A stretch of 64,000 bases of DNA. It comes from a virus (lineage: Duplodnaviria > Heunggongvirae > Uroviricota > Caudoviricetes). Position 1 is the first letter of the stretch; every line of letters begins with the position of its first letter. Location of the stretch: IMG/VR virus record IMGVR_UViG_3300025782_000009, one strand, 5' to 3'. The notes under the pieces are model-generated. The model searched no databases, was not told the DNA's origin, and was given only the letters and a program-made list of their open reading frames with translations. This document shows positions 3,799 through 61,881 of the stretch, piece by piece. The position numbers and the translations under genes were made by a program.

Positions 3799-3807
3799 GG
3801 TCTACCA

Positions 3808-3975: not shown

Positions 3976-3978
3976 ACC

Positions 3979-4110: not shown

Positions 4111-4112
4111 AA

Positions 4113-30000: not shown

Positions 30001-30035
30001 TTGGTAGGATCCGGTAAATCGCTAATATCAATCAT
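24033..30035 (-). CDS. Giant virion-associated or ejection protein (2000 aa) with a zincin-like HExxH motif, Ala-rich and Pro-rich N-terminal segments
   Basis: A continuous 6-kb ORF at the end of the late operon. FEVLAHEFIHLISLAE contains HExxH. Features include an N-terminal DISDLP repeat, an Ala/Gly-rich helix region and a PPAPPAAPETPPATPPVNPPTTPP linker. Confidence 0.8.
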   Translation of the reverse strand: MIDISDLPDPTKPRPVDISDLPAPPPPKAPDTSRTFGQAATDIGAGLVSGVGGAAKFVPQMYGLATGDFSDTGVMAIGNKLQQYGEEMKSPGLKAREQLKEEKVKEAEKSGQLSALGREALETIKDPFGLGLNFIAQQLPEQLPAIIAAIAAPELSPAVAASRAAARKAVGTAAEKAAAEAAQAAAVKSGARAAIGTGALQQGSDVGAQVYKATYDKMIADGVPEDEAKERALKYARATGVAGAAISLGAQNLPGGHRFAEALAGKAGKAGRLRNAAGLALGELPSEEIEEVGGQLAQNVAQQQVDPNAELTENLGRTAAQAGIGAIGTAGGMGLLQKPAAAQKPGTTPPAPPAAPETPPATPPVNPPTTPPGNVAPGANPDLSQHFENYHQGLPDASSTVFQNRDRSTDASIQQMQGVAANPRYNDLSISRSFGSGAPVVMTDEKLNENQLGNYEMTTASDGTKIPVRYAVVDAHELLPSHSHDGTKNAEYQDLSVSAIRPVAGNGRVAGIQEAYQRGTAGKYKEELVNDAAHGIDPKTIADMKQPVLVRVMPKSFITPNIGDISNVSGISGLSAIDSAKQDANRIDINSLKFYDNGDPHIDSLRDFVNAMPVSEHPDLKDLFGQPSKKAEDRLMNAVFWKAYGNEQLINLYGPTRDAESRLVLNSLGTVAPKMAQLDGAGEYDIRPYVTQAAEAAVNARRRNIPLEDMAKQMDIGTNPYTQRILQMFADSGRSGKKITEGLNNLANAALEEHNRTDTDMFGEVPKRSLDEVFKKAFEGEKDLFTPPDEPPTKDTFFQKPQLSKAELLKRLNGKNIVEAAQILVDIAHDSYHKGIAEHILRKVQEFDRRGVPMTFSTKYVMNKKRSSLGRVFSPSGLGKINFIMEINGEKGSTFEVLAHEFIHLISLAEIKFLGTDNPLVKELDDLRKLVHKQWRKDKKEGKYIRDEFSINYAFKKSTGVEGDFYAEFITQGLTDPAMQKYLAGIKVGNKTALDKLMEFVRKVLNLSPEYETALDRLIRISTDMFENPALEIAKDLEKKGYTLGVPTTPQAPPGRLKSNPKMTAEESPIQPSQATGAGRDALDSLRDMGREVEEQPKSFYENLKSYWDNAIDNPGMAIEDAKKAATKFSDKIQTWIFSSDSAFNNNIKRGIMQADGEMSDKVRNRLNISTSQAVGADIVANGALLDGKLGYDDDVQKWEVVKDRYNLKELIKSISEFANKYNMTYQEAELVTHMAFEARRTQSLKDFNASIASAPEEIEALNELLNSLTGNDPDTKAQRAEVKAAISRFENLAKQKPKLIHLSDEQIATGLDFFKSMPELQDTVDIWQGMRNNAKDALVESGLWSEEYAEQMMSNIDYVPFQREFEEEEAKGGDKNYLSGLMVKAREFKMTGSERPVANIVDNMAKWIEYSYNRSIRNSQAKAMIDTAMSKDLESLGIAKKIPHPIKNANVVRIWRDGKEEFYDMKDPLFVDAFAGIQAVSVPTVKFFSKFANILRESVVMNPLFAVSQVPQDAFSAIFTSGLSPQYALRIPALAAKEFVKTLRRTSTTHEELKKYRAVGYTDFTSDLARRDAEVYAGVKPPPGGWGKVKGMLKHISMASDNAVRQAVYEASVSAGLTRGEAIEKAFEVFNVRRRGTSTTLRVVSQVIPFFNAYLAVQNVAFKTITGEGISPTERKAGLQTLAMTTGSVMALSLLYAMMNGDDDDYLKKPTTVRDRLLMIPGSGGLSIPLRNDVFTIPKIITEHLYLLMTNNATEDGRKFRDSMASALTSSLMAPTPVPQAIKPAVEVALNYDFFQNRNLINPFMLKEDVSRQFNDSTSELGKVLGKTGLIAPINADHIIRGMFGSVGGLTLMLTNPILHTDPNVERPTIGWHDVLASVPGSSGFISKENQTGLKRDFYILKDEVDKASATFNDIKKRTPSEAADYMKSKEHQMRVGMHSDIDKIAKNLSNIQNAIAIISNKPNMDPDKKEKQIENLHKQEELILKNINIKKLRAMAQL

Positions 30036-32608: not shown

Positions 32609-34989
32609 GCTGGAACCTCTGCATATTTAATTGCTTTGTAGCCTGAATCCAAAGTAACCACAGCATTTGGATATATCTTTTCAACCTCTTGAGCCATGAG
32701 TCCAATGAATCTACCGTGCCCTGCGGTCGGCGTATCTTTAAACTCAGGCTTGTACTCAAACTCGTATACACCAAGACCATCAGGACGAACTGCAATCTTA
32801 ACGATATTCTCTTTTGCCCTGATATCAGATGTTGTCCCGCCACCTGTTCCATTCGTACCGGAAGATGTAGTTGTATTGCTTTGCGGAGTAAGCGAATTGT
32901 AAATTCCAGTCAAACCAGATAGATCGCCGGCAATAGTAGACAACGTGGATGTATTCGGCGTTGTAGCAGCAGCAGATATTGGTAGACCTGCAAGCATACT
33001 TGCCTGATCGGTGAGTAATGTCTGTGGGTACTGAACCTGTTGGTTGAACTGATTGAGCGATGCTGTGTCCGCAGCTTGTTGTAGTCCTTGCTGTGTTCCT
33101 CCGGCTGTTCCAAGAGCCTGATTCGCTGCCAAACCGTAGTTAGCTGCCGCCTCATTAGCCGCTTCTTGATTCTGCTGAGCTTGCAAGCTTTGTGTATTAG
33201 CAGTATTAAACTGATTCATTGCGTTGTTGTACGCAGTGTTGTATCCAGTACCAATCAAATTAGCTTGTTGCGCCAATAGATTATAGGCATCCTGTCCTTG
33301 TAGAACTGCTTGTCTTGTACCGCCATAAGCCCCAGCATTGGTTAGCTTGCTTAGATCTCCTTGCTCATTTTGTTTAGCTTGGAGTTGTAAAGCTTGGAGT
33401 TGTGGATTTAAAGATGCCTGTGTATATGGGTTCATATACTGAGCTGCCGCATTAGCATCAAACGTACCAGACTGGAACTGGGTAGGCGTTAACCCTGTAG
33501 CAGCTATTTGATTGGCATTGGCAAAGTATTGGTTCTGTAGATTGGATGGGCCAGCAGTTAATTGACCCGTATAAACCGGCATACCAGAGTTAACTAGAGC
33601 CTGTTCTTGCCCGAGCATATTAGTAACATAAGGAGCAAATGTGCTGTTTAATCCTTGTGTTGTAGATGTTCCAAGACCCGATACCGCCGTGGGCGATGTG
33701 GCAGTATTGGCTGTAACAGTACTTCCTGTCGTACCGTCAAAGCCTTTAACGCCTCCACCAGACGCATATCCTGCAATACCACCAGGCATAAAGTGATCTG
33801 GGTTAATTTCTTTGCCCTGCTTCTTAGTACCCGTGCGAGCCATGCGAATCTTATCCATCATCTGGTAAAGCTTCTTAGCACCGGCATCAGAGTTGCCATT
33901 ACCTAAATGGGAAACGACATCGGCAGGAATAACAAACTCACCGTGGCTTAGCTTGGCTGGTTGTACACCGTCAATAGATGTATCTAGCTTATCTGCCATT
34001 CCGTCTGTTGAGCCTTGGAGATAGCGACCGCCATGAGCCATTCCTGCTATTCCGCCTGGCATCATTCCACCGTGAGCTGCGTGAGTGGTGGGTAAGTTTT
34101 GTTGTTGAGCAGGATTTTGCTGAAGGTTAGCCACTTGAGCCTGTATGGCTGCAATCTGATCTGGCGTAGCAACTTGAGCTATTCCTGTTGGTTGGGGCGC
34201 TGTTACGGGCGTGATAGCCTGTACTGGTTTTCCTTGGTTAGCCCATGCAGTATTGACGTTAGCTGCGGGCAATGGCTGAGCAGCTACTGGAGCTTGGGTT
34301 AAGCTTTGAGCTTGTTGGTTTGCTGTGGCTCTTGCAGCAGATATCTGAGATGGATCAACATACTGACCTGGAGTAAAGAAAGCCTGTCCTTGACCTGCTT
34401 GCGCTAAAGGAACCTGTTGATTTACATAGCTTAGATTAGGTATGCCAGCTGAGTTACTTAAAGCTGTTTTTGTATTGTTTCCTCCCAACATAGCTGCAAT
34501 ACCAGCAGCAGTGGTTAAGTTTCCAGCATTCAAAATGGAGGCAGGAATATTAGTTGCTTTACTGATGGCGTTAAGCAATCCTTGTGCGCCAGACTGAGCG
34601 CCAGCGGAAGAATCTGAACTAGCGGGAGTAGAAGAACTGGAAGACGCAGAAGGAGTTACTGTAGGTGTAGAGTAATACTTGCCGTCAGCCGTAACCGGAG
34701 CACCACTTTTTGAATCAACAAAACCTGTTGGGCTTGAGTTGCTTGTGGTTACACCCTCTGGCAGCGCAGTACCTGTAACTTCTGTCGTGTAATTACCTTG
34801 GGAATCCAAATAATAATTAAGAACCGTACCGTTTGCCTGTATTTGCTGATCAATTAGATCGCCTTTGCCGCTTGAAGTTCCGGTAGAAGAGGCAATGCCC
34901 TGGGCTGGCATGGATGTTGTAGAAGTTCCATCATCATAATATGTGGTAACGCTACCGTCCGAATTTTGAATTTGATCGGTAATATCCAT
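32605..34989 (-). CDS. Fibre or spike protein (794 aa) with a C-terminal intramolecular-chaperone (peptidase S74-like) auto-processing domain
   Basis: The C-terminus SDIRAKENIVKI...GVYEFEYK...HGRFIGLMAQEVEKIYPNAV carries the S-D-x-R-x-K signature. The body is Q/S/T/A-rich and also has an HGGMMPGGIAGMAHGG patch. Confidence 0.75.
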   Translation of the reverse strand: MDITDQIQNSDGSVTTYYDDGTSTTSMPAQGIASSTGTSSGKGDLIDQQIQANGTVLNYYLDSQGNYTTEVTGTALPEGVTTSNSSPTGFVDSKSGAPVTADGKYYSTPTVTPSASSSSSTPASSDSSAGAQSGAQGLLNAISKATNIPASILNAGNLTTAAGIAAMLGGNNTKTALSNSAGIPNLSYVNQQVPLAQAGQGQAFFTPGQYVDPSQISAARATANQQAQSLTQAPVAAQPLPAANVNTAWANQGKPVQAITPVTAPQPTGIAQVATPDQIAAIQAQVANLQQNPAQQQNLPTTHAAHGGMMPGGIAGMAHGGRYLQGSTDGMADKLDTSIDGVQPAKLSHGEFVIPADVVSHLGNGNSDAGAKKLYQMMDKIRMARTGTKKQGKEINPDHFMPGGIAGYASGGGVKGFDGTTGSTVTANTATSPTAVSGLGTSTTQGLNSTFAPYVTNMLGQEQALVNSGMPVYTGQLTAGPSNLQNQYFANANQIAATGLTPTQFQSGTFDANAAAQYMNPYTQASLNPQLQALQLQAKQNEQGDLSKLTNAGAYGGTRQAVLQGQDAYNLLAQQANLIGTGYNTAYNNAMNQFNTANTQSLQAQQNQEAANEAAANYGLAANQALGTAGGTQQGLQQAADTASLNQFNQQVQYPQTLLTDQASMLAGLPISAAATTPNTSTLSTIAGDLSGLTGIYNSLTPQSNTTTSSGTNGTGGGTTSDIRAKENIVKIAVRPDGLGVYEFEYKPEFKDTPTAGHGRFIGLMAQEVEKIYPNAVVTLDSGYKAIKYAEVPA

Positions 34990-34990
34990 A

Positions 34991-37396
34991 TTAAACTCTC
35001 CAGTCCATTAATCTTAATAAATCGTCTACTGAGCCGCCCGTAGCCGCCATTGTAGTGGTTTGCGCTTCATTTGGCGAGGCATAAATAACCTGTTGCACGT
35101 CTTGTGGTGCGCCATAATTTGTAGGTAAATCAGCCATAGTTGGCATATCAGCCATAGGTGTAGGGGATATGTTTTGTACAACGTTTGTGGGCTGATCTAC
35201 CAATCCAGCTAAATTTACCTTTGGAGCACCGGTATCCACAACTGGTGCGTTAGGCGTGTATATCGTAGGAGTAGCAAGGATTGCAAGCTGATTAGCAGTT
35301 AAACCGCTGGTTCCTGTAGTAGATCCCGTCAAACCAACCGCTGCCGCAGCAGAGCCAGCCGCGCTAGATGCTCCAGTTGCCCCTGTACTTGTAGTAGGAA
35401 CAAGCGGATTAGCCCCGGAAGTAGGCACATTTCCATATATCTTTTTAACGTCAAAGCCTATTTGGCTCAGCGGATTTGTTGGGTCTGCCGCAACAAGTGG
35501 TGATTCAGGGTTCTGAACAATATCTGGTATAGCAGGGTTGGATATGCCGGTAGGATTATTAAAGGCATCCACGATTTGCGTATAGGCTAATGCCAGTTCC
35601 GTTGGCGCTTGGAATCCGGCATCTTTAGCGGTTTGCTGTTGCTCGTATCCATTCCATCCGGCTTGTTGGGCAGTTTGATTAGCTGTATTCCAATCTGCGG
35701 CAGTGGCAATTCCATAATGAGTAGCAGTCTCATATGTTTTGGGATCAGAGAATCCTGCATCAGAAGCCATGCGCTCCTGTGGATAATTTACCCATCCATT
35801 CTTTTGCGCCTCAGAGTTAACGTCTAACCACTGAGCCATTGTTGGAACGTTGTATTCTTGCGCTGATTCGTATATAGCTGCGTTTGTAAATCCTGCGGCA
35901 GCCGCAACTTGTTGAGTAGGATAGTCTTTCCATCCCTGCTGTTGGGCAACGGAATCAATTGTTTGCTCGGCAGTTTTAACCGTAGTATCAGCTAATTGCT
36001 GAGTAATACCAGTGGCATCCTGTACCACATATTGTTCATAGTTAACAACATTATTTGCAACGCTAGCAGTTTGCGTATTAAGACTATCCAAATATGCGTT
36101 AACCTGTGTCTGAGCTGTAGATACCGCATCCGAATATGGTTTATATGACGTTTGCGCGGCAGTCATCTTTGCGCCAAGATCATTCAAATTAGCTATCTGC
36201 TGCTGAATATCAGGAGCTTGCTTTGCTAAAGCATTACCCTCCGCATTAATTTGATCGGCGGTCTTTGGCGAGGCATCAGGATTAGCGTTATAAGTATCAA
36301 CATCAGCTTTATAAGTAGCCAAGGCATCATTAAACGCTTTAGCATTTGCTTCTACCGTTGGCTGCAATTGAGAATATTGAGTTTGTATTGGATCTACATT
36401 GGTAGTAAAGTAATCTTGCGCTGCTTTAGCGGCAGGAACAAATGTATTGTTATAGTAATCTTTTGCTTGTGCTTTTAATTGATTTAATTGATCTGTTCCA
36501 TAAGATACGGCTTGTGCAATCGTAGTGGCTTTAGCAGATGTTCCAATTGCCGTTGCCACATCCTGTCCATTTAATATAGCTTTTGTAGCTGCATTAGTTG
36601 CATTAACTACATAGCTTGTTGGAATATTTCCGTATCCAGCAGCCTTCAATTCATTAGCAACATATCCACTAGCCGCTCCGGCAACAGCAGAATACATAAT
36701 CTGATTAACTGGTTGACCCATCAACGCAGCAGTAGCAGCTTGACCTGATGCACTTGTAACAACTTGCTTGATCAATTGTTGAGTAGCAGTAGTTATTCCA
36801 CTTTGCGTAGTTACTGCGCCGGTAGATGCATCTTCATATATAGCAGCTGCTGTACTTGTTCCTCCGGTTGCCACATTGCTTGCAGCAGTACCTGCATATT
36901 GACCAATGATTGATCCGGCATATCCAGCTCCAATAGCCAAGATCATCTTGCTCATATCACCGCCATTGATAGCGACAACTGCTGCGTTAGTAATAGCAGC
37001 TCTGAGTGCGGCATCCTGAATTAAAGCTGTACTAGCACCCGCTCCTGCGGCAGCTCCAGTAGCTGCACCCGCTGCGGCTCCTGAACCTGCTCCTGCTCCC
37101 GCACCAATAGCTTCTCCAGCGCCGCTTGTAACAGCTGCACCAGTACTATCAACAAGTGCTGAACCCGCCGTGGCTCCTGCTCCTGCGCCAGCACCTGCAC
37201 CTGCTCCGGCAGAACCTATTCCAGACGGCCCAAGAGCATAAGATATAGCAATTGCTTCAATAATAGGTAAAGGATTAGCAATAATGTAATTGACCGTATT
37301 CTCTAGCTGCTTACCAAGCTTTGCAGTTGCACCTTCAGCTTGTGATATAGGGTTGGCAAGCGCACGAGATATAGGATTACCGCACGACATTTGCAA
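34991..37396 (-). CDS. Large structural protein (801 aa) with a Gly/Ala-rich N-terminus and three GW-YP repeats of about 40 aa
   Basis: (GA)n stretch GAGAGAGAGATAG. The repeats are QQQGWKDYPTQQVAAAAGFTNAAIYESAQEY / KNGWVNYPQERMASDAGFSDPKTYETATHY / QAGWNGYEQQQTAKDAGFQAPTELALAY. Confidence 0.7.
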   Translation of the reverse strand: MQMSCGNPISRALANPISQAEGATAKLGKQLENTVNYIIANPLPIIEAIAISYALGPSGIGSAGAGAGAGAGAGATAGSALVDSTGAAVTSGAGEAIGAGAGAGSGAAAGAATGAAAGAGASTALIQDAALRAAITNAAVVAINGGDMSKMILAIGAGYAGSIIGQYAGTAASNVATGGTSTAAAIYEDASTGAVTTQSGITTATQQLIKQVVTSASGQAATAALMGQPVNQIMYSAVAGAASGYVANELKAAGYGNIPTSYVVNATNAATKAILNGQDVATAIGTSAKATTIAQAVSYGTDQLNQLKAQAKDYYNNTFVPAAKAAQDYFTTNVDPIQTQYSQLQPTVEANAKAFNDALATYKADVDTYNANPDASPKTADQINAEGNALAKQAPDIQQQIANLNDLGAKMTAAQTSYKPYSDAVSTAQTQVNAYLDSLNTQTASVANNVVNYEQYVVQDATGITQQLADTTVKTAEQTIDSVAQQQGWKDYPTQQVAAAAGFTNAAIYESAQEYNVPTMAQWLDVNSEAQKNGWVNYPQERMASDAGFSDPKTYETATHYGIATAADWNTANQTAQQAGWNGYEQQQTAKDAGFQAPTELALAYTQIVDAFNNPTGISNPAIPDIVQNPESPLVAADPTNPLSQIGFDVKKIYGNVPTSGANPLVPTTSTGATGASSAAGSAAAAVGLTGSTTGTSGLTANQLAILATPTIYTPNAPVVDTGAPKVNLAGLVDQPTNVVQNISPTPMADMPTMADLPTNYGAPQDVQQVIYASPNEAQTTTMAATGGSVDDLLRLMDWRV

Positions 37397-40144: not shown

Positions 40145-40741
40145 TTATGCAAAGACGGATAACGCATGATTGGTTTTAGCAATGCGATCTTCTAGTCCTA
40201 TTGTCCCACCATTGATCTTCTTGGTCAACGCTACCCAGTCCTTTGCCTGGGCTAAATTATTGCATCCATGCGTGTTCCAAAACCATCCCGCAGACAGCAT
40301 CGCATACATGGGCGTAGCTACCAGATCAGGCTTTCTTACCAGGTCTTCCTTAATAGCTTGACCACAATGCCAGTAGTTATCGTGCAGAGTAAGTTGAATA
40401 GCTCCTCTTCCCCGGTACATATAACCATCCCCGCTTGCCTCGTCCCGGTTGCCGCCTTTGTTGGCATATGCCCGGTTTGCAATTTTCTGGGGGTTATTTG
40501 CGTACTCGGCTGCGTTGGCTGAGTTGAAATGGGTAGGCCATAGGCGGATCAGTGTCTCTGCTTTATAGTGCAGATTCTCTTCCAGGGTTCTATAGTTTCC
40601 GCTCTCATGGGCAGTCTGGGCTATGAACGCAGCAGCTTCTTCAGGAGTAACAATACTAAATGCGGCAAAGGTCGTATTAAGAGGTTCTACCCATTCCGGG
40701 CCAATACCCATTGCATGAAGCTGCTGTGCTGTAACGTTCAT
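40145..40741 (-). CDS. Endolysin, glycoside hydrolase family 19 (chitinase-like lysozyme)
   Basis: AAFIAQTAHESGNY and YRGRGAIQLTLHDNY match the GH19 catalytic motifs. Confidence 0.85.
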   Translation of the reverse strand: MNVTAQQLHAMGIGPEWVEPLNTTFAAFSIVTPEEAAAFIAQTAHESGNYRTLEENLHYKAETLIRLWPTHFNSANAAEYANNPQKIANRAYANKGGNRDEASGDGYMYRGRGAIQLTLHDNYWHCGQAIKEDLVRKPDLVATPMYAMLSAGWFWNTHGCNNLAQAKDWVALTKKINGGTIGLEDRIAKTNHALSVFA

Positions 40742-50879: not shown

Positions 50880-51304
50880 TAAGCACTCCTGATTAAAGCT
50901 GTTGATGAACTATTCGCCGGCATAGTCACTGTAAATGAATTGGAGCAACTCTTATCTGATCCAAAGTCAATTACCGCAATAGATGCATTACCCGCCGTAG
51001 CATCATAAATCAAAGCACATCTAGTGGTAAATGAAGCTGGAGTCCAAACAACATTATTCCAATTCAAATAAACAACGCTATTCGTAGCATCATAGTTTAT
51101 CGTAAGTCCAGTCATTAACTTTCCGCCGGCCGTATACCCAGTACCAACTACTTCATTCACAGACGAGTATGCGGTTGTGGATAAATTTAAATTAGCCAGG
51201 CCCGTATATAGAGCCATGTAGATATTGTCTGTCGAAAGATTAAATACTCCGCCATTGAATAGCTGGTATTTAAAACTTGTGGTCTGACCTTGGACTATGC
51301 TCAT
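50879..51304 (-). CDS. Fibre-associated protein (141 aa), paralogue of the 50201..50677 product
   Basis: See the paralogue. Confidence 0.55.
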   Translation of the reverse strand: MSIVQGQTTSFKYQLFNGGVFNLSTDNIYMALYTGLANLNLSTTAYSSVNEVVGTGYTAGGKLMTGLTINYDATNSVVYLNWNNVVWTPASFTTRCALIYDATAGNASIAVIDFGSDKSCSNSFTVTMPANSSSTALIRSA

Positions 51305-52404
51305 GGTACGGGTTGAATCCTAGTTTGACCAGAGCGGTATGCATCTTGACGATCCAATCCATCTCCAAGGCGTTTCGCAATGGCTAATGCTTCCTTGTAT
51401 TGATTTTCATAAAAGGCAATCAAATCTTTATCGCCCTTTTGGTAGGTATAAGCTTCAACCAAAGAGCCGTACAAAAGCACTGAATCAAAGTTATTGCCAA
51501 GCCAGGACTGACCTGCTGCATTGGTAATTGTTGAAACTGGTACGGCAAATCCTGACCCTGATCCGCCAAGATAAGTATTAGATACAGTTAAAGAATCTCC
51601 AACTACATAGCCTGTTCCACCAGATGCCAGGGTAGCTGATGTAACTACGCCACCCGCTACAACAACCGTAGCATAAGCAAAAGAGCCAGTCCCGCCAGAC
51701 AAAGGAACGTTGTAATATGTTCCAGAGACATATCCCGTTCCTCCACTAGATATAGTACCCAGTGCAGTAATCGGAGCCTGAACAATACTATCTGGATAGA
51801 AAAAGTAATGTAACTCAGCCAAATAAGACTGATCAGGAGTCGGCCCAAGCATAAAGCTAAGATATAAAGGCGCAGAGCTTTGGGGGCCAAATAATGCATA
51901 GTGTTTAGGCAAGCTCTGATAGCTTGATGTTGGATAGCACTCGCGAATAAAGTTAACGTCTTTATTTAACAAATACAAATAATCTGTTTGAAAAACAATC
52001 GTACCAGATACCGCTGCAATGTTGTACTGCGATAAAGTAATTGTCGTTCCTGATACGCTAAGCACTTTGCACTGAACACCAATACCTGTTCCGCTTACGC
52101 TTTGACCGGCAAAGATATTTGTAGCAGATGAAACCGTAATGGTGTTTGTGCCAACCGTCCCAGTCGCTGTGGTGCTCACACTTGAGAATACTGCCAATGA
52201 AAAAGGAGCTAAAAAATCATTGGGGCAAGACAAGTATGAGTTACCAGCAGTCAATACGCCCGTCACATTCTTACGCAGGGACGGAAACAAGATAGAGTTA
52301 AATACTCTTTGCTCTGCCTGTTGTATGAATGTATTGATATCATTCGTAGGGAATGTGTATTCCAAATACGAATTGATCTCAGTGACGAGCTGGCTATAGT
52401 TCAT
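51301..52404 (-). CDS. Tail structural protein (367 aa)
   Basis: ORF with ATGA coupling. The C-terminus has the repeated motif GGTGYV(S/V)G. Confidence 0.6.
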   Translation of the reverse strand: MNYSQLVTEINSYLEYTFPTNDINTFIQQAEQRVFNSILFPSLRKNVTGVLTAGNSYLSCPNDFLAPFSLAVFSSVSTTATGTVGTNTITVSSATNIFAGQSVSGTGIGVQCKVLSVSGTTITLSQYNIAAVSGTIVFQTDYLYLLNKDVNFIRECYPTSSYQSLPKHYALFGPQSSAPLYLSFMLGPTPDQSYLAELHYFFYPDSIVQAPITALGTISSGGTGYVSGTYYNVPLSGGTGSFAYATVVVAGGVVTSATLASGGTGYVVGDSLTVSNTYLGGSGSGFAVPVSTITNAAGQSWLGNNFDSVLLYGSLVEAYTYQKGDKDLIAFYENQYKEALAIAKRLGDGLDRQDAYRSGQTRIQPVP

Positions 52405-52778
52405 GCCATTGGGCCTCTAGCAATTCTGCCACGTTCAGCTGCGCCATTACCCCTGGTCTCTTCACCAGATGTTTTGATCTCATCCATATTGCCAATTGAT
52501 ACGCCACCGTTTAATGGAGTCCAATTCTTACGAGTAGGCATCTTCACTGCTAAACCAATGTCTGGATGAGTTTGATTTTGCTCAATAGCTTCAGTACCAA
52601 ACTTTTTACCATTCATCTTATGTGGTGCAGCATACTCTTCAGCCGGGCCATTTGTCTTGTTTTTAGCTTTGACAATAGCTGGGCTATTCTTTTTTGTAGG
52701 TTTGATGACCTGCATATTAACCTCCGGTTTGATAGCTAGCTCTGGACAAGTTGCGTCCAAGAGCTTTACGGCTTTCAT
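52401..52778 (-). CDS. Basic structural-module protein (125 aa)
   Basis: ORF with a Lys-rich N-terminus. Confidence 0.5.
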   Translation of the reverse strand: MKAVKLLDATCPELAIKPEVNMQVIKPTKKNSPAIVKAKNKTNGPAEEYAAPHKMNGKKFGTEAIEQNQTHPDIGLAVKMPTRKNWTPLNGGVSIGNMDEIKTSGEETRGNGAAERGRIARGPMA

Positions 52779-52908
52779 TTGAAACGCCGGCTACTCCGCC
52801 TTTTGCAAGCTTAGTAGGCTTCTTTCCTTTGTGCATATTCTTCTCATGCTTATGCACTTCTTTTGCAGCCTCTTTATCTGCAATTTTCTTAACTTCTGCT
52901 TTCTTCAT
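52717..52908 (-). CDS. Small Lys-rich protein (63 aa) with a KGG motif
   Basis: MKKAEVKKIADKEAAKEVHKHEKNMHKGKKPTKLAKGGVAG. Confidence 0.4.
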   Translation of the reverse strand: MKKAEVKKIADKEAAKEVHKHEKNMHKGKKPTKLAKGGVAGVSNESRKALGRNLSRASYQTGG

Positions 52909-52918
52909 AACTGCTCCT

Positions 52919-53311
52919 TTAAGTAGTAGAAATTGTAACCGTGCCCACCTGATTTGTGGTAACTAAATTATTAGGAGTCAGTACAGAATCAAACTGACTT
53001 GCCCCGCCTATCGGGTTCCAGCCCCACTGAATATCCCTTGATCCACCGGACGGGAATCCTAAGATATCCAGTCCAGATGCAACATAACTTAAGTCCGGTC
53101 TTGGTTGGCGAACAGCTTGAGGATCATCAACTGGATACATACCCAATTGAAGCTGTGGCTGATCTGGATCCCAACATTCAGGACAAACCTTTAGCTGATA
53201 CAGCTTGGTCTTAATGACCTCCATCTTGAGTTGGCTAAGTTTGTACCGCTGACCGCATCTATCGCATTCAGCAATGGAAAATTTGCCAGAAGCGAACCTA
53301 TTGCCCATCAA
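52919..53311 (-). CDS. Zinc-ribbon protein (130 aa)
   Basis: CDRCGQ ... CPEC in the N-terminal half. Confidence 0.5.
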   Translation of the reverse strand: MMGNRFASGKFSIAECDRCGQRYKLSQLKMEVIKTKLYQLKVCPECWDPDQPQLQLGMYPVDDPQAVRQPRPDLSYVASGLDILGFPSGGSRDIQWGWNPIGGASQFDSVLTPNNLVTTNQVGTVTISTT

Positions 53312-54270
53312 TAAGCTCCGCCACCACCACCCAAGAATTGCTGTCTTGGCACAAACCGAATAGCCGCCTTCTCTCTATCCTCGCCAGCAGCAATATCAAA
53401 CTGCTCATCATATGCCTGTTTAAGCATTTGCACTCTGGGCATTAATTCTGGGACTTTCATTGAAATATGGTACGCCAGACCGGCAGCTACGGCTGGCAAG
53501 AACCTGAAGTTCATGTCTTGCACATTCGGCCCTGCTCCGGCATCCTGAACACGCCGCAGCCGCCAATAAGCAAAGGTATAAACTTGCGATGAATCTGGTG
53601 TTGGCCATACAGTTACTGCCGGTAGTTTAGGAACATATACCGCTGCACCCAGTGCATAAGACTGAGCCGTGGTGTTCGCTTGTGCTCTAAAGCAATTCTG
53701 TAAAGTGTTACCGGAAATGTATGAATAATAAATAATCTCGCCGCCTATAGAGCCAAGCTGGATATAGCCGTTTGCAGCCAATCCTACCGTGCTAGAAAGC
53801 GTTATTGTGGTAGCAGTGGATGATACTGCTGCTGCCACTTGAATCGTTGTTGTAGACGTTTCTCCAGACATTCTCTGAACCCAAACTTGAATAGGTCTAG
53901 CCTGGGTTAGTTTGTTTGGAATAGTCGCATAGGTAGAAACACTGATACGAGTAATTGTTAGGTCAGATTGATTAGAGGTGCTGTTGGCATTGGTGCGGAT
54001 TACATGATCCAACAAATCAATCGTATCAGTGGGCAATGGATAAGTATTTAAACCAGGTGTTAAGGTGATAACGCCCTGGTCAATAGTCCACATATTAATG
54101 CCACGGTTTTGCCATTCGATGGTCATCAGGTTCATTGACCTGCGAGCAGTACGCAAGTCATAACCGGAACGCATCTCCCTGCCAGCTCTTTCCCATGCTT
54201 CCTCTGCTATTTCGGCAAAGTCTAGGTCAAAGCTGGTTGTTCCAGTAGTGGTTCCGGTATTGATTGACAT
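53308..54270 (-). CDS. Virion structural protein (320 aa); tail tube or adaptor candidate
   Basis: ORF in the structural operon with ATGA coupling. Confidence 0.6.
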   Translation of the reverse strand: MSINTGTTTGTTSFDLDFAEIAEEAWERAGREMRSGYDLRTARRSMNLMTIEWQNRGINMWTIDQGVITLTPGLNTYPLPTDTIDLLDHVIRTNANSTSNQSDLTITRISVSTYATIPNKLTQARPIQVWVQRMSGETSTTTIQVAAAVSSTATTITLSSTVGLAANGYIQLGSIGGEIIYYSYISGNTLQNCFRAQANTTAQSYALGAAVYVPKLPAVTVWPTPDSSQVYTFAYWRLRRVQDAGAGPNVQDMNFRFLPAVAAGLAYHISMKVPELMPRVQMLKQAYDEQFDIAAGEDREKAAIRFVPRQQFLGGGGGAY

Positions 54271-54521
54271 TATGCGCTAGGAGCTTCTGGCTCTTGTGGA
54301 GCATCAACTAATACAGACTGCACAAAAGCATCTACAGTCTTTGCCGGAGCTTCTTGAGCCTCTTCTTGAACTGGAAGCGTAGCATTGAGTTGTGCATCCA
54401 AATCATTGATTACTCCTTGAAGATCAGGGTCGATACCGTTATAAGCAGCCATTTGATGCTCAGCTCTTTTGTTCAATTCATCAAGGATGAATAGCGCGTC
54501 TTCGTTGCTAATCTGAATCAT
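54270..54521 (-). CDS. Hypothetical acidic small protein (83 aa)
   Basis: ORF with ATGA coupling. Confidence 0.5.
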   Translation of the reverse strand: MIQISNEDALFILDELNKRAEHQMAAYNGIDPDLQGVINDLDAQLNATLPVQEEAQEAPAKTVDAFVQSVLVDAPQEPEAPSA

Positions 54522-55057
54522 TTCTTTTTCCTTGTTTTAGCGGATTTAATAAAGTCTGCCTTGGATGGAGCGCCTTTGGAGCCAGGCTTACGCATATGCT
54601 CGCCAGAACCTGCTGCTATCCTAGCTTGTTTTGCATGGATATTGGCATAAAGTCCAGGATGATTAGTTGCTCCGCCTTTTTTGTATGAAGTATCGCTTAG
54701 ATTTTTTACAGTATATCTTGAGCCGCCGTATTCGTTATCCAATCTATCAACAGCTTTATTGGCACTGCTTAAAGAATCGTATGCTTTGCCTCTTACCAAA
54801 CTATTGGCATGAGTATCCCAAACGCGGTATTGAGCCGGAGCAGAAGAAGTAGAAAAGCTACCCCCGCTTCCTCCGCTAGTACCTTCAAGTATTGGTGTAT
54901 TCTTGTCAGTAGGATTAGCCTTTCCACCAACGCCAAATTTCTTGATCTTTCCGCCCTTCTTAAACTGCTCAAAGTCAGTATCATCACGGCGTTTTTTAAT
55001 CTTTCCTTTTGGCATTTTGGAGGCGCTAATATCCCCCATACCGCGGCTTGCCATCAT
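54518..55057 (-). CDS. Basic Gly/Lys-rich protein (179 aa) with KGG motifs; likely an internal virion or DNA-associated protein
   Basis: KKGGKIKKFGVGGKA and YKKGGATNH are present, with a strongly basic C-terminus KSAKTRKKK. Confidence 0.55.
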   Translation of the reverse strand: MMASRGMGDISASKMPKGKIKKRRDDTDFEQFKKGGKIKKFGVGGKANPTDKNTPILEGTSGGSGGSFSTSSAPAQYRVWDTHANSLVRGKAYDSLSSANKAVDRLDNEYGGSRYTVKNLSDTSYKKGGATNHPGLYANIHAKQARIAAGSGEHMRKPGSKGAPSKADFIKSAKTRKKK

Positions 55058-55239
55058 TTGTGCATACCCCTTAAGGTTTCAGCTAAGCGAGCACGTTGCC
55101 CCAGTTTACCTGGAGCTTTTGCCGCTTTAGCTAGTTTCTTGGCTGGAATCTTTTTACCTTCAGGAACGCCAAGCTGCTCGCGCAATGCGCCAGCTTTTTT
55201 GATGGCGTGTTGGATCCACTTTTCAGCCATGATGACTCC

Positions 55240-55464
55240 TTAACAGGCTTTACCGCCGTGCTTCATGTGTTTCTGATGCTTGTGCAAATGCTCAATAGCT
55301 TCATGGTGTTTTACATGACCACCGGCTTTGTGCTCGCCGTAGTGGTGGTGATGATGAACGTGACCTCCGGCCTCGTGCTCTTTCATGTGATGAACCATGT
55401 GCTTGTGCTCATGCTCATGGGGAGCTTCGCCGTGTTCCATAATGGGAGCGTGATCGTGTTTCAT
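55240..55464 (-). CDS. Extremely His-rich small protein (74 aa, about 30 percent His)
   Basis: MKHDHAPIMEHGEAPHEHEHKHMVHHMKEHEAGGHVHHHHHYGEHKAGGHVKHHEAIEHLHKHQKHMKHGGKAC. Confidence 0.5.
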   Translation of the reverse strand: MKHDHAPIMEHGEAPHEHEHKHMVHHMKEHEAGGHVHHHHHYGEHKAGGHVKHHEAIEHLHKHQKHMKHGGKAC

Positions 55465-55473
55465 ATTTGATCC

Positions 55474-56184
55474 TTATTTCTTGTGATGAACTTTAGCTTT
55501 GCCGCCGTGCTTCATGCCAGTAGTTGTACCAGCCATCTTAGGCATCATTGCGCGGGTATGACCCTTTTGCTGAATGCCATGCTCGCCATGTGCGCGTTTT
55601 TTCTCGCCCTTTTCAATGCTAGACAAGCCTTTTTTCATGCCTCTTACATCTTCAGCAGCTTCTTTCTTGCCGCCAGATGCTTTTACTTCTACGGTGTCAT
55701 CAATGTGTCCACCTTTAGCATAGTGGTGTTTAGCCTTAGCTTTACCGCCATGCTTAAGAGCCTTTTCACCCATGTCTTTAGAATGGGGTTCTGCTTTTTC
55801 GCCGTGCATACTCATGTGATGCTCAGCCATCGCCAAATGGTGATGAGCTAAGTGCTTGTGGTGAGCCTTTGTTAGACCACCGTGAGCCATGCCAGGAGCG
55901 CCAGGAGGCATTGCACCAGGCATATTCATTGCAGGAGCGGCAGGAGCTGCCATAGCCCTTGGAGCCGCAGCTCTAGGACGGCGAGCCGCCATTAATGCAG
56001 CCATTGCTTGAGCCGCTTTAGGATTCATCGTTGCCATATCACCACCTCTTTTAAAATGTTTGCCTTTATCGGCTTCCGCAAAATCACGACCCACCGATTG
56101 TGGAACGTGCACCTTCTTTGCAAAAGCCTTATTATGGGCTATTGCTTCCATAAAATCATGCTGCTTTTTACTGCTGCTTGGCAT
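55474..56184 (-). CDS. His/Lys/Ala-rich protein (236 aa) with HGGKAK / KGG repeats
   Basis: MAHGGLTKAHHKHLAHHHLAMAEHHMSMHGEKAEPH, KHGGKAKAKHHYAKGGH and MKHGGKAKVHHKK. Confidence 0.6.
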   Translation of the reverse strand: MPSSSKKQHDFMEAIAHNKAFAKKVHVPQSVGRDFAEADKGKHFKRGGDMATMNPKAAQAMAALMAARRPRAAAPRAMAAPAAPAMNMPGAMPPGAPGMAHGGLTKAHHKHLAHHHLAMAEHHMSMHGEKAEPHSKDMGEKALKHGGKAKAKHHYAKGGHIDDTVEVKASGGKKEAAEDVRGMKKGLSSIEKGEKKRAHGEHGIQQKGHTRAMMPKMAGTTTGMKHGGKAKVHHKK

Positions 56185-56189
56185 TTCAA

Positions 56190-56429
56190 TCAGCCTTTTT
56201 GACGAATAAGGAGATCAATTTTTTCTTCAAGCCTGTTAAAGCGTTGATCAATGTGGTCTGTAATTCGATTAACTTCTGCATTGGTGACATATTCACGAGC
56301 AATCTCCTCTCTGGTTTTGTTTAACAGAATATCAAGTCTTTTGACTTCTGCAAACTTCTCTTTTAAAAAGAACCCAATTATCCCTATCAATAGAGATAAA
56401 ACGCCGTTCCAAACAACCATTGCGTCCAT
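56190..56429 (-). CDS. Small membrane protein (79 aa)
   Basis: N-terminal transmembrane segment VVWNGVLSLLIGIIGFFL, then a charged helix. Confidence 0.5.
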   Translation of the reverse strand: MDAMVVWNGVLSLLIGIIGFFLKEKFAEVKRLDILLNKTREEIAREYVTNAEVNRITDHIDQRFNRLEEKIDLLIRQKG

Positions 56430-56731
56430 TATAGATACCTGCCCTTTGTATGACCTTTTTTAGCAGTGCCGTCAGCGCGACTTGATGCGGAAGAGCGGAC
56501 TTTGCCGCCTTTTGCTAGCCTGTTGGTACGAGCAACTTCGCGAGTAAGCTCTGACATCTCTTCTTCAGATCGTCCTTTTGGGCCTGTTATAGCATCAACA
56601 GTTGCAGCAATGGGAAAGCCTAAGTTGGTTTTTATACCCTCTTTTTCCTTACCCAATTTTGATGTCATTGGATATGCTCTCTCAAACTCCATATCTTCGG
56701 CTATTTTTCTAGCAGGTGTTTTTTCGGCCAT
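56429..56731 (-). CDS. Small basic protein (100 aa) with a KGG motif
   Basis: ...RLAKGGKVRSSASSRADGTAKKGHTKGRYL. Confidence 0.5.
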   Translation of the reverse strand: MAEKTPARKIAEDMEFERAYPMTSKLGKEKEGIKTNLGFPIAATVDAITGPKGRSEEEMSELTREVARTNRLAKGGKVRSSASSRADGTAKKGHTKGRYL

Positions 56732-56740
56732 TTTTTGCTC

Positions 56741-56983
56741 CTAGCATTTCCACTTTCTTAAGCTCTTATTTACTCTGCTTTCCGGGTCGTTTGCTGTCTC
56801 TGATCCGGTCAATTTCTTCTTTAATCCTTCCATCCTGGCGCAAAAAGAATCTTTCCTTGAGCCACCCTCTGGCTGAGGAGGCTTCAGATTCATTCCTTGC
56901 TTCTTGGCGGATTCTCTCCCTTTGGAGTTCAGACCACCAGCCGGGTTTTTCCCCTCTTTGCGTTGCCAAGCTGGTGTCTTCAT
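56741..56983 (-). CDS. Small basic protein (80 aa). The alternative overlapping frame 56766..56999 cannot be excluded
   Basis: ATGA coupling to the upstream 271-aa gene favours this frame. Confidence 0.35.
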   Translation of the reverse strand: MKTPAWQRKEGKNPAGGLNSKGRESAKKQGMNLKPPQPEGGSRKDSFCARMEGLKKKLTGSETANDPESRVNKSLRKWKC

Positions 56984-58707: not shown

Positions 58708-59610
58708 TCAATAAGTTCCGTAAATACCGAGAGGATCAGACCACCCGAATGAATAACGCTCACGGCTCTTATATCTAACGTTACCAGTATCGAAGTCACC
58801 ATCCATTGAATTTTGCAATGGGGTTCTTTCGAAGTGCTTCATACCGTTAGGTACATCGGTTAACAAGAACCAAGCATTAGGCGCTGTCAAGAAGTGATTG
58901 ATTGTGTATCCTTCTGGGATAGAACCATTGTTCTCGATAGCGTTAATGTCGTTGTTAGTTGTACCAACGCGCAGTTTAGTTTCGAGCAAACGGGTTGCAA
59001 CGAACTGTAGTGCTGGAGGAACAATCAACTTTCTTGGCTTAGCAGCGATCAAAAGTCCGCGCTCGTCTGTCCATGCAGCGATCTGAATAACGGCATTCTC
59101 AAGAGAAGTCTCGTTCAAATCGGCAGGAGTAGCTGGGCTGTTGGAGTTTGTACCACCGTTAACCAATGGGTGTGAGTTGCTGAACAAAGAAACGCCGTCA
59201 CCACCAACATAAGCAGAGTTGAAGCCGTTGTTTAATACGGCAGCAGCTTTAACTTGTTTGGTGTAAGCCATTGCGCGAGCAAGACCCTTGGTGTAGCGAG
59301 CAGACAAGCTGTCGTACAGGTTATCTTCAATCGCCTCTTCAGTGATTGAAAATCCAAGAGCAATAGTCTCGTGGTTATAGCGAGTTGTCCATGCCTCTTG
59401 TGCATTGTCATAAGCGATGGCAGAGCCTTCGTTTTTGACTGGTGCAGCAGAGAAACCGGATAACTTGGTCTCTTCTTCAAAGCTACGCTCAGATGTCTCT
59501 GTTTCGTAGATCTCTTTGTGCTCTTCGCCGTAGCGGGCGTACTCAAGTCCAAACAATGCGTTCAGTCCAGGGAGCAACTCTTTCAATAGTTGTGCGCGTG
59601 AAATAGCCAT
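58708..59610 (-). CDS. Major capsid protein (HK97 fold)
   Basis: 300 aa. The N-terminus MAISRAQLLKELLPGLNALFGLEYARY is characteristic of the gpT/E-like major head protein family. It lies after the scaffold genes and is followed by a strong terminator. Confidence 0.7.
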   Translation of the reverse strand: MAISRAQLLKELLPGLNALFGLEYARYGEEHKEIYETETSERSFEEETKLSGFSAAPVKNEGSAIAYDNAQEAWTTRYNHETIALGFSITEEAIEDNLYDSLSARYTKGLARAMAYTKQVKAAAVLNNGFNSAYVGGDGVSLFSNSHPLVNGGTNSNSPATPADLNETSLENAVIQIAAWTDERGLLIAAKPRKLIVPPALQFVATRLLETKLRVGTTNNDINAIENNGSIPEGYTINHFLTAPNAWFLLTDVPNGMKHFERTPLQNSMDGDFDTGNVRYKSRERYSFGWSDPLGIYGTY

Positions 59611-60957: not shown

Positions 60958-61881
60958 TTAAGCTCCTGATCTTTGTTTAGCAACCTGACGGGCATAGTCC
61001 TCTAATGAGACACCAAGCCTTTTGGCGATGTTTACCTGACTTGTAGTAAGTACGATTTTTTTAGACGCTGTACTCCTAGACGCAGGTGCAACTACCGACT
61101 TCTTGGGTGGAGGAGATGCATCCACTTCAGTATCGCTTTCAAAAGCATCTGGGAACCTAGTACGCATTTCGGAATCAATTCTTCGGTAGTACTCTTCGCT
61201 CGATGGATTTAATCGCTCATCTTGCGTGAGTTCCTCGTGTATGGCAAGCGCATAACTGGTCATGCGCCGATTTTGCCCGAACCAAGGATTCTTATCTTTC
61301 CAGGCCTCCGCCTTTCGGTCTAGCTGCGCTGGTTGCGTTACCTGCGTTTGTACCTCATTTCTTTCCTCTTGTAAAGGGGCTGGCTTGAAATTATGTAACT
61401 CTCTTGCCTTAATTGTTACGGCAGTTAGTTCACTTTGTGCTTCAGCTAAAGCATCAGAATCACCCATTTCATAAGCAGCTTTGTACTTATTCTTGGCAGA
61501 TTGAAGCTCGTTTTCAACCACTTTTTTAGCTTGTTCCAGCAAAGCGGTTTGCCCTTGATTCAAGGAACCTTTGAGTTTTTTGTTCTCTTCCACTACGGTT
61601 TGAGCAAGCCTTAAAGCTTCTTCGCGCTCACGGTAGGCCGCTTCTTTTGCACGGCGTTCATCGTGATATCCCTTGGTGAAATGTTTAATCCGTTTCTTTA
61701 CGGAGTCGTTGTAGGTCTCCAACTCATCATCGGAAAACTCTTTGGGTGGTTCGTCAGCCGGCTTGCGACCGCGGTCTGGCTCAGGAGTATCGTCAACGAT
61801 CTCAAGCTCAGGCGTTTCTTCTACTTCAATCTTCTCTTCCACTTCGTCTGGGAATTTAAATTCTCTTTGTTCAGTTGCCAT
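60958..61881 (-). CDS. Scaffolding-like protein (307 aa), acidic and coiled-coil
   Basis: Highly charged helical composition (EEKIEVEETPELEIVDD ... LEQAKKVVENELQSAKNKYKAAYE). It sits between the portal and capsid genes. Confidence 0.55.
   Translation of the reverse strand: MATEQREFKFPDEVEEKIEVEETPELEIVDDTPEPDRGRKPADEPPKEFSDDELETYNDSVKKRIKHFTKGYHDERRAKEAAYREREEALRLAQTVVEENKKLKGSLNQGQTALLEQAKKVVENELQSAKNKYKAAYEMGDSDALAEAQSELTAVTIKARELHNFKPAPLQEERNEVQTQVTQPAQLDRKAEAWKDKNPWFGQNRRMTSYALAIHEELTQDERLNPSSEEYYRRIDSEMRTRFPDAFESDTEVDASPPPKKSVVAPASRSTASKKIVLTTSQVNIAKRLGVSLEDYARQVAKQRSGA

Follow-up and report, generated by a model that had tools for sequence, protein, structure and literature searches.

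Two histidine-rich protein families in a cassette of small basic proteins between head and adaptor genes in an uncultured clade of freshwater phages

Identification of p74 and p236

The window, i.e., the whole 64,000-nt stretch analysed (IMG/VR record IMGVR_UViG_3300025782_000009), came from a phage and encoded two very His-rich proteins: p74 (74 aa; 55240–55464, minus strand) and p236 (236 aa, isoelectric point [pI] 10.2; 55474–56184, minus strand). Both belonged to a conserved, fast-evolving cassette of small, strongly basic modular proteins that was co-transcribed with the head and adaptor genes. They were genuine genes under purifying selection, because independent calls of these open reading frames (ORFs) were identical, gene order was conserved across loci, dN/dS of p74 was low, and no DNA-level repeat underlay their His runs. 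From their sequence patterns, p74 and p236 can tentatively be read as metal-binding, DNA-accompanying internal polycations with pH-dependent charge (see below).

An earlier note on this DNA, made from the letters alone, had reported a 74-aa protein with about 30% His and a 236-aa protein with HGGKAK repeats, lying between capsid and tail genes. Both ORFs were present as described: (i) p74, initiated by ATG, contained 25 His (33.8%), including the stretches HVHHHHHYGEH and HEHEHKH, together with K 12%, E 12%, G 11%, M 6.8%, and one Cys, and it terminated with ...MKHGGKAC; and (ii) p236 contained A 17.8%, K 14.4%, G 11.4%, H 10.6%, and M 8.5%, with HGGKAK occurring twice. The position was likewise borne out: the major capsid protein (MCP) gene (58708–59610, minus strand; PHROG major head match) was the upstream boundary of the region, and the SU10-type adaptor gene (53308–54270, minus strand; SU10 adaptor family match) was the downstream boundary of the cassette. 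The genes were arranged in the order MCP, p233, p271, p80 (DUF6321), p100, p79, p236, p74, p58, p179, p83, adaptor, p130, p63, p125, and p367; the capsid, adaptor, and cassette genes were all on the minus strand, and those in the capsid-to-adaptor interval were closely packed or overlapping.

His made up 1.8% of the residues over 106 heuristically called genes of the window (the proteome average), and the binomial probability of at least 25 His was 4e-25 (p74) and 2e-12 (p236). A repeat check of the p74 and p236 DNA revealed no tandem repeat behind the His runs, so a DNA tandem-repeat origin was ruled out; the His codons of p74 were mixed (CAC 16 and CAT 9). Both starts were preceded by a Shine-Dalgarno-like AAGG(A) motif (AAGGA, about 6 nt before the ATG, in p74), and the p236 start lay 5 nt past the stop of its upstream gene p79. 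Independent JGI and ENA gene calls on separate contigs yielded identical 74-aa and 236-aa products and identical neighbours, and P0122, 100% identical to p236, was found in JGI and ENA samples on 18 contigs, the longest of 75 kb. Pairwise dN/dS among p74 homologues was 0.06–0.29, with synonymous sites at or near saturation.

Scanning IMG/VR with p271 gave 291 related stretches, from which 80 loci were kept for synteny. Lineage A, accounting for 26 of the 60 loci that reached the adaptor gene, displayed the order p271, DUF6321, (p79), p236-like, p74-like, (p100-like), p179-like, (p58), and adaptor, with the p74 homologue always directly after the p236 homologue. A second lineage (lineage B; adaptor of 352–360 aa) contained no p74; instead, it carried upstream of p271 a 286–405-aa His/Lys-rich protein packed with KGG, HGG, and MGG, e.g., L014_48_1265 with 14–15% His and the terminus ...HHKKGGKCNY. 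Homologues in related phages, for which the earlier note had proposed a search, were thus found in syntenic positions on related uncultured freshwater contigs.

The MCP gene displayed 64–66% nucleotide identity to those of Planktothrix phage Pag-Yong1, Synechococcus phage MinM2, Pelagibacter phages HTVC023P and HTVC027P, and DSL-LC04, the last genome being itself metagenome-assembled. p74 and p236 were carried by a podovirus-like clade of uncultured freshwater phages, related to phages of the HTVC023P, Pag-Yong1, and DSL-LC04 type. A host call from genome bins was not used, since the contigs with the head module fell into a Nanopelagicaceae metagenome-assembled genome (MAG) in one case and a Burkholderiaceae MAG in the other, which conflicted. 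The two phage-like contigs with the head module in these MAGs were L094 (DAIQAR010000022.1) and L095 (DAITMV010000041.1), and L094 carried the complete cassette, in which the p74 homologue had 72 aa and 42% His.

The p74 family

Conservation within the p74 family was derived from a 122-sequence alignment and is given in the numbering of the window protein. The conserved core (aa 30–57; 55294–55377, minus strand) was composed of two tandem units of about 12 aa with the pattern H-x-[E/D]-H-x-x-K-H-A-A-G(G)-H; more precisely, the core unit read H-x-[E/D]-H-[Y/V]-x-K-H-A-A-G, followed by H-K-H-H-x-D-H-V-K-A-M-C-G-G-G, a tandem duplication that became a triplication in some members. Seven His were kept across the family, namely, His 30 (83%), 35 (93%), 37 (76%), 38 (96%), 45 (98%), 50 (98%), and 53 (72%); V57, the G70-G71 pair, and a Cys directly preceding the terminal Gly-Gly were conserved too. 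Of the 25 His in the window p74, about 14 others were exchanged in relatives for Met (19% of replacements), Glu (17%), and also Lys, Gly, Phe, Asp, Pro, and Arg. A Cys was present within the last 14 residues of 120 of 121 members, and 121 of the 128 Cys of the family were located there; the window p74 did not have the usual Cys before GG and carried Cys as its last residue instead (55240–55242), as in a few relatives. Met content across the family was 9–10%, while His content ranged from 7 to 36% (median 17%) and reached 42–43% in loci L009 and L094.

Searching 5.8 billion proteins with the single p74 sequence gave only two matches, and a profile built from syntenic loci was needed: with 17 syntenic homologues, it retrieved 237 clusters (E <= 0.01), all metagenomic, nearly all of 52–90 aa, and none with a Pfam domain, several of them on 60–66-kb contigs. 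p74 was a small, clade-restricted family of about 65 aa known only from metagenomes, because an exhaustive HMMER search of 1.84 billion representatives recovered only 98 matches at E <= 0.001. No match to p74 was found by tblastn in 50,697 phage records or in Pfam, NCBIfam, and PHROG (Pfam-A and NCBIfam at E <= 0.1); its profile gave nothing better than E = 7 against PDB sequences, and Foldseek of its structural model against PDB returned 0 matches. Longer, distant members carried the core at the C-terminus, always preceded by MKKGG, YKKGG, or FKKGG.

AlphaFold2 (AF2), run with the 122-sequence alignment, placed helices at residues 23–33, 38–48, and 53–68 with AGGH loops between them (predicted local distance difference test [pLDDT] 64), and p74 was accordingly modelled as a roughly three-helix protein of tandem His-x-x-His...Ala-Gly-His units. 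By inspection of the sequences, no hydrophobic signal segment was present at the N-terminus of p74 (MKHDHAPIMEHGE...) or of p236 (MPSSSKKQHDF...).

The p236 family

p236 consisted of a putatively folded N-terminal mini-domain and a largely disordered tail that contained five [K/R/H]GG sites. The N-module (aa 1–48, MPSSSKKQHDFMEAIAHNKAFAKKVHVPQSVGRDFAEADKGKHFKRGG; 56041–56184, minus strand) was predicted to be a three-helix mini-domain (AF2 pLDDT 75–93), and residues 1–43 matched positions 1–43 of the 58-position profile phrog_16759 (E = 8.3e-18), a module of about 45–58 aa with the pattern MPS.SKKQH.FM.A.AH...FAKK...PQSVG.DF..ADKG. By tblastn, the N-module was 74% identical to the 58-aa PHIKZ165.1; it stood alone in several jumbo phages, and it headed 121Q gp51 and two PHROGs annotated as 'virion structural protein' in 121Q-type jumbo phages. 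The remaining 190 residues were modelled at low confidence as isolated helices (pLDDT 56 for the whole protein). p236 matched no family in Pfam-A or NCBIfam at E <= 0.1 and matched PHROG over its first 43 residues only, and no carrier of its tail was found among the 50,697 phage records. Foldseek of p236 against PDB gave only non-significant hits (E > 1; best E = 1.5), mostly helix-turn-helix DNA-binding domains; a helix-turn-helix identity of the N-module was at most a lead and was not counted as evidence.

The alignment of 100 p236-family sequences displayed five conserved blocks: (i) block 1, the N-module; (ii) block 2, an Ala/Pro/Met linker ending with PGM[K/A]HGG; (iii) block 3, L-[S/T]-K-x-HHKHLAHHHLAMAEHHM; (iv) block 4, KHGGK plus YAKGG; and (v) block 5, HGEH-x-IQ-x-[K/R]GHTRAM-x-PKM. 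Block 3 contained a putative helix (aa 105–127, TKAHHKHLAHHHLAMAEHHMSMH; 55804–55872, minus strand), recognized from conservation and a helical wheel and modelled by AF2 at residues 110–124 with low confidence. His was kept in 91–95% of the sequences at positions 108, 111, 115, 116, 122, and 123, and M119 was nearly invariant (>=90%); on the helical wheel, these His and M119 occupied one face, with an Ala/Lys face opposite. The variable His of p236 were exchanged mostly with Lys (42% of replacements). Cys was the last residue in 58 of 102 full-length members of the family, although not in the window p236.

Charge, metal ligands, and environment

The computed charge of p74 was –1.6 at pH 7.8, +0.7 at pH 7, +11 at pH 6, and +24 at pH 5, and because of this switch a pH-dependent role for p74 was physically plausible; that of p236 changed from about +22 at pH 7.8 to +49 at pH 5. 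The grand average of hydropathy was –1.5 for p74 and –0.85 for p236, with few large hydrophobic residues in the helices.

The conserved His/Met/Cys columns made metal binding plausible. HxxM/MxxH occurred three times in p74 and five times in p236, relative to shuffle means of 3.3 and 4.2 (fractions of shuffles reaching the observed counts, 0.71 and 0.43), and HxxH/HxxxH spacing was no commoner than in shuffled p74 and p236 sequences. In the earlier note, a shared metal-binding or pH-sensing His theme had been called unusual for phages. Conserved, pH-titratable His were indeed present (seven in p74 and six in p236), but the extreme His content was a lineage-specific feature (7–43%).

Loci L007 and L045 originated from IMG 3300000439, and L007 carried a p74 homologue with 38% His. 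This sample is the epilimnion of Trout Bog, a small humic lake that exceeds Lake Mendota in humic substances and Fe (He et al., 10.1101/392027). Literature searches covering His-rich phage virion proteins, Pag-Yong1, DUF6321, and DSL-LC04 yielded neither proteomic nor functional data.

Neighbouring genes of the cassette

The cassette began with p80 (56741–56983, minus strand), a basic DUF6321 protein (PF19846, E = 9e-17) with the terminus ...KWKC, followed by p100 (56429–56731, minus strand), a basic protein containing LAKGG and then ...SSRADGTAKKGHTKGRYL, a 'RGHTK' tail module that was fused to other modules in relatives. Next was p79 (56190–56429, minus strand), composed of an N-terminal transmembrane helix and a coiled coil, which preceded the p236 homologue in most lineage-A loci. 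Homologues of p79 were found at the same MCP-to-adaptor position in DSL-LC04 and also in roseophages CRP-901, CRP-902, and CRP-810; p79 may be lysis- or envelope-related, because its CRP-901 homologue was located between lysozyme and peptidase. Homology of p79 to HTVC023P gp48 was not significant (E = 1.2). HTVC023P gp48 (3779–4138 of locus L002) had itself a transmembrane plus coiled-coil organization, was located next to an M15 peptidase, and contained the His-rich insert SHSHDMPKHSHEVGEHQHDEHGH.

Downstream of p74 were p58 (55054–55230, minus strand), a 58-aa Lys/Ala-rich basic protein with pI 10.9, and p179 (54518–55057, minus strand), a basic protein with FKKGG and YKKGG and with a C-terminal 50-aa module (phrog_16028) directly after YKKGG. 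The region encoding this C-module (54518–54655, about 140 nt) had 70–76% nucleotide identity to small regions of unrelated marine phages: (i) between ribonucleotide reductase (RNR) and psbA in T7-like cyanophages 7B11-B, WH11-B, and S-B28 and (ii) in roseophage CRP-5 and a Mediterranean fosmid. The C-module was thus a promiscuous, strongly constrained mini-ORF. Downstream of the adaptor gene, p63 (52717–52908, minus strand) was a 63-aa Lys-rich protein with LAKGG and the terminus ...YQTGG. All cassette proteins except p79 and p83 had pI values of 9.7–10.9. A single Cys at or near the C-terminus recurred across p74, p236, DUF6321 (...WKC), and the lineage-B His/Lys proteins (...GGKCNY); a disulfide, a metal ligand, and a covalent attachment are among the possibilities for it.

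Basic-Gly-Gly junction motif

A five-residue motif, [M/F/Y]-[K/A]-[H/K/R]-G-G, was found within the window only in the cassette proteins and in two large proteins of 857 and 794 aa, and it also terminated many stand-alone proteins. At 875 GG sites of the p236 family, position –3 was M (49%), F (16%), or Y (9%); position –2 was K (46%) or A (33%); and position –1 was H (30%), K (24%), or R (16%). Several related phages contained comparable arrangements: (i) in lineage B, two loci (L072:5030–5557 and L037:5888–6355, plus strand) encoded 155–175-aa fusions of three modules that were separate in the window, with a KGG-type motif at each junction, L072_5030_5557 being composed of the N-module ending with ...KFAKGG, the p179 C-module ending with ...PMKEGG, and DUF6321; (ii) HTVC023P gp43 was GFKRGG plus DUF6321; (iii) Pag-Yong1 had a Gly/Lys/Met/Pro-rich 'MKKGG' protein just upstream of the adaptor; and (iv) the MCP-to-adaptor interval of DSL-LC04 contained Lys/Met-rich GG proteins with the terminus GGSACK.

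The 857-aa protein (30035–32608, minus strand) was Ala/Gln/Pro-rich and contained the patch AAHGGLMHHVPEHMYHFKEGG (aa 241–265; 31814–31888, minus strand), followed by ILGFDGKSGS. The 794-aa protein (32605–34989, minus strand) had a low-complexity N-terminal half, the patches HAAHGGMMPGGIAGMAHGGRY (aa 303–323; 34021–34083, minus strand) and FMPGGIAGYASGGGVKGFDGTTGS (aa 400–423), a 'DNA ejection protein' PHROG match at aa 441–791, and Peptidase_S74, an intramolecular-chaperone domain, at aa 721–777. FKEGG or YASGG followed by [I/G][L/V][G/K]GFDG[K/T][S/T]GS was common to both proteins, and this sequence likeness suggests local paralogy. The earlier note had extended its His theme to these two proteins. 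The HGG patches themselves were there (AAHGGLMHHVPEHMYHF in the 857-aa and AAHGGMMPGGIAGMAHGG in the 794-aa ORF), but they did not make a His theme: because the residue before GG was interchangeably H, K, or R, the feature common to the cassette and the large proteins is better described, from sequence, as a basic-Gly-Gly module boundary than as a His patch.

The same minus-strand operon also encoded a GroES-like protein, tail-fibre-like proteins, a GH19 endolysin (40145–40741), the 794-aa protein, and a 2000-aa protein. The 2000-aa ORF (24033–30035, minus strand) had a ddrB-like ParB domain at about aa 504–552 and LPD38 at aa 1704–1875 and was thus a polyvalent protein with at least two catalogued domains. 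ddrB-ParB and LPD38 are restricted to phage-type polyvalent proteins, whose genes usually neighbour those for virion proteins and for which packaging and injection are predicted (PMC5512222).

Comparison with known systems

Only the N-module of p236 was assignable to a known family (phrog_16759), and the relation to all other systems was one of resemblance, not membership. By analogy, p74 and p236 may belong with two known kinds of protein, i.e., His-rich metal-binding polypeptides and small basic virion-associated proteins. The likeness to PHIKZ165.1 and 121Q gp51 covered the N-module only, the His/Lys/Met tail of p236 having no counterpart there, and the 'virion structural' label of 121Q was an annotation not traced to experiment.

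Hpn and Hpn-like proteins (H. pylori), SilE/PcoE, and the His-rich tails of UreE/HypB/SlyD are metal-storage or sponge proteins. p74 and p236 resemble Hpn and SilE/PcoE in small size, in a very high His content accompanied by Gly, Glu, and Cys, in having little ligand-free structure, and in having His/Met as likely ligands. They differ from these proteins in that they had no Pfam, NCBIfam, or PDB match, were phage genes of a structural operon, and did not show extreme His content family-wide; unlike SilE/PcoE, they had no signal peptide and no enrichment of HxxM/MxxH.

T4 IPI-III, T7 gp6.7/gp7.3, and adenovirus core proteins VII and mu are packaged basic internal proteins; the adenovirus core proteins are cut at Gly-Gly sites, and T7 gp6.7 and gp7.3 carry ...GGKK-type motifs. 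To our knowledge, none of them is His-rich. The cassette proteins resemble these internal proteins in being small, basic, and late, and by this analogy accompaniment of the DNA is proposed here for them; p74 and p236 differ in that no T4-type targeting peptide or LxE site was recognized, no adenain-like protease was found in the roughly 50 window ORFs scanned, and they had no sequence similarity to any of these proteins.

As with polyvalent proteins (PMC5512222), small modules of the cassette occurred alone or fused in varying orders across phages; unlike those proteins, p74 and p236 had none of the catalogued domains, and their modules were tiny (40–70 aa) and basic, with no predicted enzymatic folds. 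DUF6321 (PF19846) and phrog_16028, of which p80 and p179 were members, had the KGG junction, a basic composition, a C-terminal Cys (DUF6321), and fusion with the N-module in lineage B; p74 and p236 themselves were not members of either family.

Interpretation of p74 and p236

The tentatively favoured reading combines metal binding, DNA accompaniment, and pH-dependent charge. p74 and p236 would be made late and in high copy and would most likely be packaged with the DNA as internal polycations, and their conserved His/Met/Cys clusters would coordinate a metal of divalent or soft character (Zn, Ni, or Cu). Their titratable His would give a high positive charge in acidic bog water like that of Trout Bog, from which relatives were sampled, and p74 would nearly lose this charge at cytoplasmic pH; such a charge switch could provide tight association with DNA and capsid in the virion and release after ejection. 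Packaging, which the earlier note had taken as given, was an assumption; it is in line with the presence of a DNA-ejection-like protein and a phage-type polyvalent protein in the same operon, with the tight gene spacing between capsid and adaptor, and with the N-module at the head of proteins annotated as virion structural in 121Q-type jumbo phages. Metal binding is in line with the exchange of variable p74 His mainly with Met and with the Met/Lys-rich counterpart in DSL-LC04 (terminus GGSACK).

Several observations weigh against this reading: (i) no cultured phage among the 50,697 records carried the p74 family or the p236 tail, and the relative L082 had none of the cassette; (ii) the p179 C-module, DUF6321, and the N-module were also found outside structural regions (the RNR-psbA interval of cyanopodoviruses and the PHIKZ165.1 region); (iii) since His content varied from 7 to 43%, the extreme value was not needed for p74-family function, and distant fused members had Phe at the position of His-50, so that not every putative ligand is essential; (iv) the HxxM/MxxH and HxxH/HxxxH patterns remained at shuffle level; (v) AF2 confidence was low for both p74 and p236; and (vi) metal binding alone would not prove function, because almost any His-rich polypeptide binds metals in vitro.

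A doubtful but serious rival is that p74 and p236 are late-expressed non-virion accessory proteins, acting in the cytoplasm as metal buffers or chaperones (e.g., to deliver Zn, Ni, or Cu to enzymes of the phage or host or to sequester these metals for them) or as other host-directed small proteins produced during assembly, and inserted into the operon like morons. The cassette was indeed variable in content and absent from some relatives, the same small modules occupied non-structural positions in unrelated phages, the conserved His/Met/Cys pattern would suit metal handling at any location, and p74 and p236 had no signal peptide. Against this rival, the position was conserved: the lineage-A cassette was translationally coupled between the head and adaptor genes, and equivalent basic proteins were located at the same place in Pag-Yong1, HTVC023P, and DSL-LC04; moreover, the junction motif was common to two large virion-type proteins, and neither p74 nor p236 resembled a curated metallochaperone or metal-storage family.

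It is rather unlikely that p74 and p236 are general polycations, i.e., disordered, histone-tail-like DNA/RNA binders with GKGG/HGGK-type motifs, and that His, as a partly interchangeable stand-in for Lys, has drifted to higher levels in certain lineages. The replacement of variable p236 His mainly by Lys, the interchangeability of H, K, and R before GG, the wide range of His content among p74 orthologues, and the His-poor basic proteins at the same place in DSL-LC04 and Pag-Yong1 would all agree with it. Against these stand the seven His of p74 and the six of the p236 helix, which were kept at 72–98% and not replaced by Lys; the variable His of p74, which were exchanged mostly with Met and Glu rather than Lys; and the roughly neutral charge of p74 at pH 7, which leaves no polycation at cytoplasmic pH.

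Processing of a precursor- or polyprotein-like kind, in which the junction motif would be a proteolytic site, like the Gly-Gly sites of adenovirus or ASFV core proteins, releasing short modules from p236 and the large proteins as the particle matures, is improbable and would be partly compatible with the favoured reading of packaged metal-binding polycations. The motif was located exactly at the junctions of modules fused in relatives (L072_5030_5557 and the p74-core fusions after MKKGG/YKKGG), it formed the end of many stand-alone proteins, and [K/R/H]GG was enriched in the cassette proteins of the window (9 sites in 1144 aa versus 10 in 19192 aa elsewhere). However, no adenain/Ulp-type protease and no clear prohead protease were recognized with Pfam and PHROG in about 50 window ORFs, a scan that was not exhaustive for small ORFs and the window ends; as the only hint of one, a 307-aa ORF (60958–61881) gave a sub-threshold match to the scaffold portion in the C-terminal part of Mu gpI (22.3 bits versus a cutoff of 25.2). 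In addition, the adenain consensus has its hydrophobic residue one position closer to GG than the junction motif does, and a Gly-Gly helix cap or linker would give the same pattern with no cleavage.

Still less probable are membrane-active cationic peptides that, together with p79, would aid envelope breach at ejection or lysis in the manner of 'disruptin'-type peptides, with His making their activity pH-dependent. p79 was immediately upstream of p236 and coupled with it, its CRP-901 homologue had the lysozyme–peptidase setting described above, and p74 and p236 were cationic with predicted short helices; the GH19 endolysin and its neighbours, however, were 14 kb away, large hydrophobic residues were few, and the Ala face opposite the His/Met face of the p236 helix would make a weak membrane-inserting amphipathic pattern. 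Spurious ORFs or non-coding low-complexity sequence, to which the extreme composition and the mirror ORFs on the opposite strand might point, were effectively refuted by the dN/dS values, by hundreds of homologues with conserved columns, by an operon orientation, conserved neighbours, and Shine-Dalgarno-like motifs that all fitted the minus strand, and by the absence of a DNA repeat.

The favoured reading of packaged, metal-binding polycations can be carried further, to an improbable extension in which His/Met/Cys-rich polycations form a switchable inner virion layer in phages of humic, acidic, iron-rich bog lakes, with the junction motif as a packaging code. Outside the cell, the polycations would be protonated, metal-loaded, and possibly disulfide-linked via the single C-terminal Cys, and the DNA would be condensed and shielded; because no side chains oxidise more readily than those of His, Met, and Cys, the polycations might also be sacrificed in quenching singlet oxygen and radicals generated by metal catalysis. 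Once in the cytoplasm, which is neutral and reducing, charge, metal, and cross-links would be lost, and the genome would be released. All packaged proteins, the 857-aa and 794-aa ones among them, would then carry [M/F/Y]-[K/A]-[H/K/R]-G-G as a common code for incorporation or processing.

p74 and p236 represented two unannotated families confined to an abundant uncultured freshwater phage clade, and their composition (up to 43% His, about 10% Met, and a single C-terminal Cys) was highly unusual among phage structural operons. Should they be packaged, p74 and p236 would be the first His-based internal virion proteins with pH- or metal-dependent charge, and virion chemistry would be tied to lake chemistry (acidity, humic substances, and iron); if merely late accessory proteins, they would be a modest addition to the His-rich metal binders. 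Through the junction motif, and through five or six mini-modules that are shuffled between separate genes and fusions, a large class of small basic ORFs in phages becomes tractable: DUF6321, phrog_16028, and PHIKZ165.1-like ORFs are widespread in aquatic and jumbo phages and entirely uncharacterised.

Other genes in the window

The SU10 adaptor family was matched by two different proteins (51301–52404 and 53308–54270, both on the minus strand); the former, of 367 aa, contained Gly-rich repeats (GGTGY...GGTG) matching tail-fibre or virion PHROGs. An 801-aa protein (34991–37396, minus strand) with 20% Ala began with a long (Gly-Ala)n run (GAGAGAGAGAGA...) and contained three copies of an about 45-aa unit, 'QQ.GW..YP.Q......AGF', with no family match.

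The left part of the window contained replication and modification genes (Toprim, C5-methylase, helicase, PD-(D/E)XK nuclease, RtcB, SPFH, and ERF). Among them, a 488-aa C-5 cytosine DNA methyltransferase (6402–7868, minus strand) adjoined a Toprim protein (5585–6430) and a ResIII/DEAD-type helicase (8235–9722). A PD-(D/E)XK nuclease, an RtcB RNA ligase (E = 2e-130), and an SPFH/Band-7 protein were encoded consecutively on the plus strand (18073–21085), where RtcB suggests repair of tRNA cut by host anticodon nucleases.

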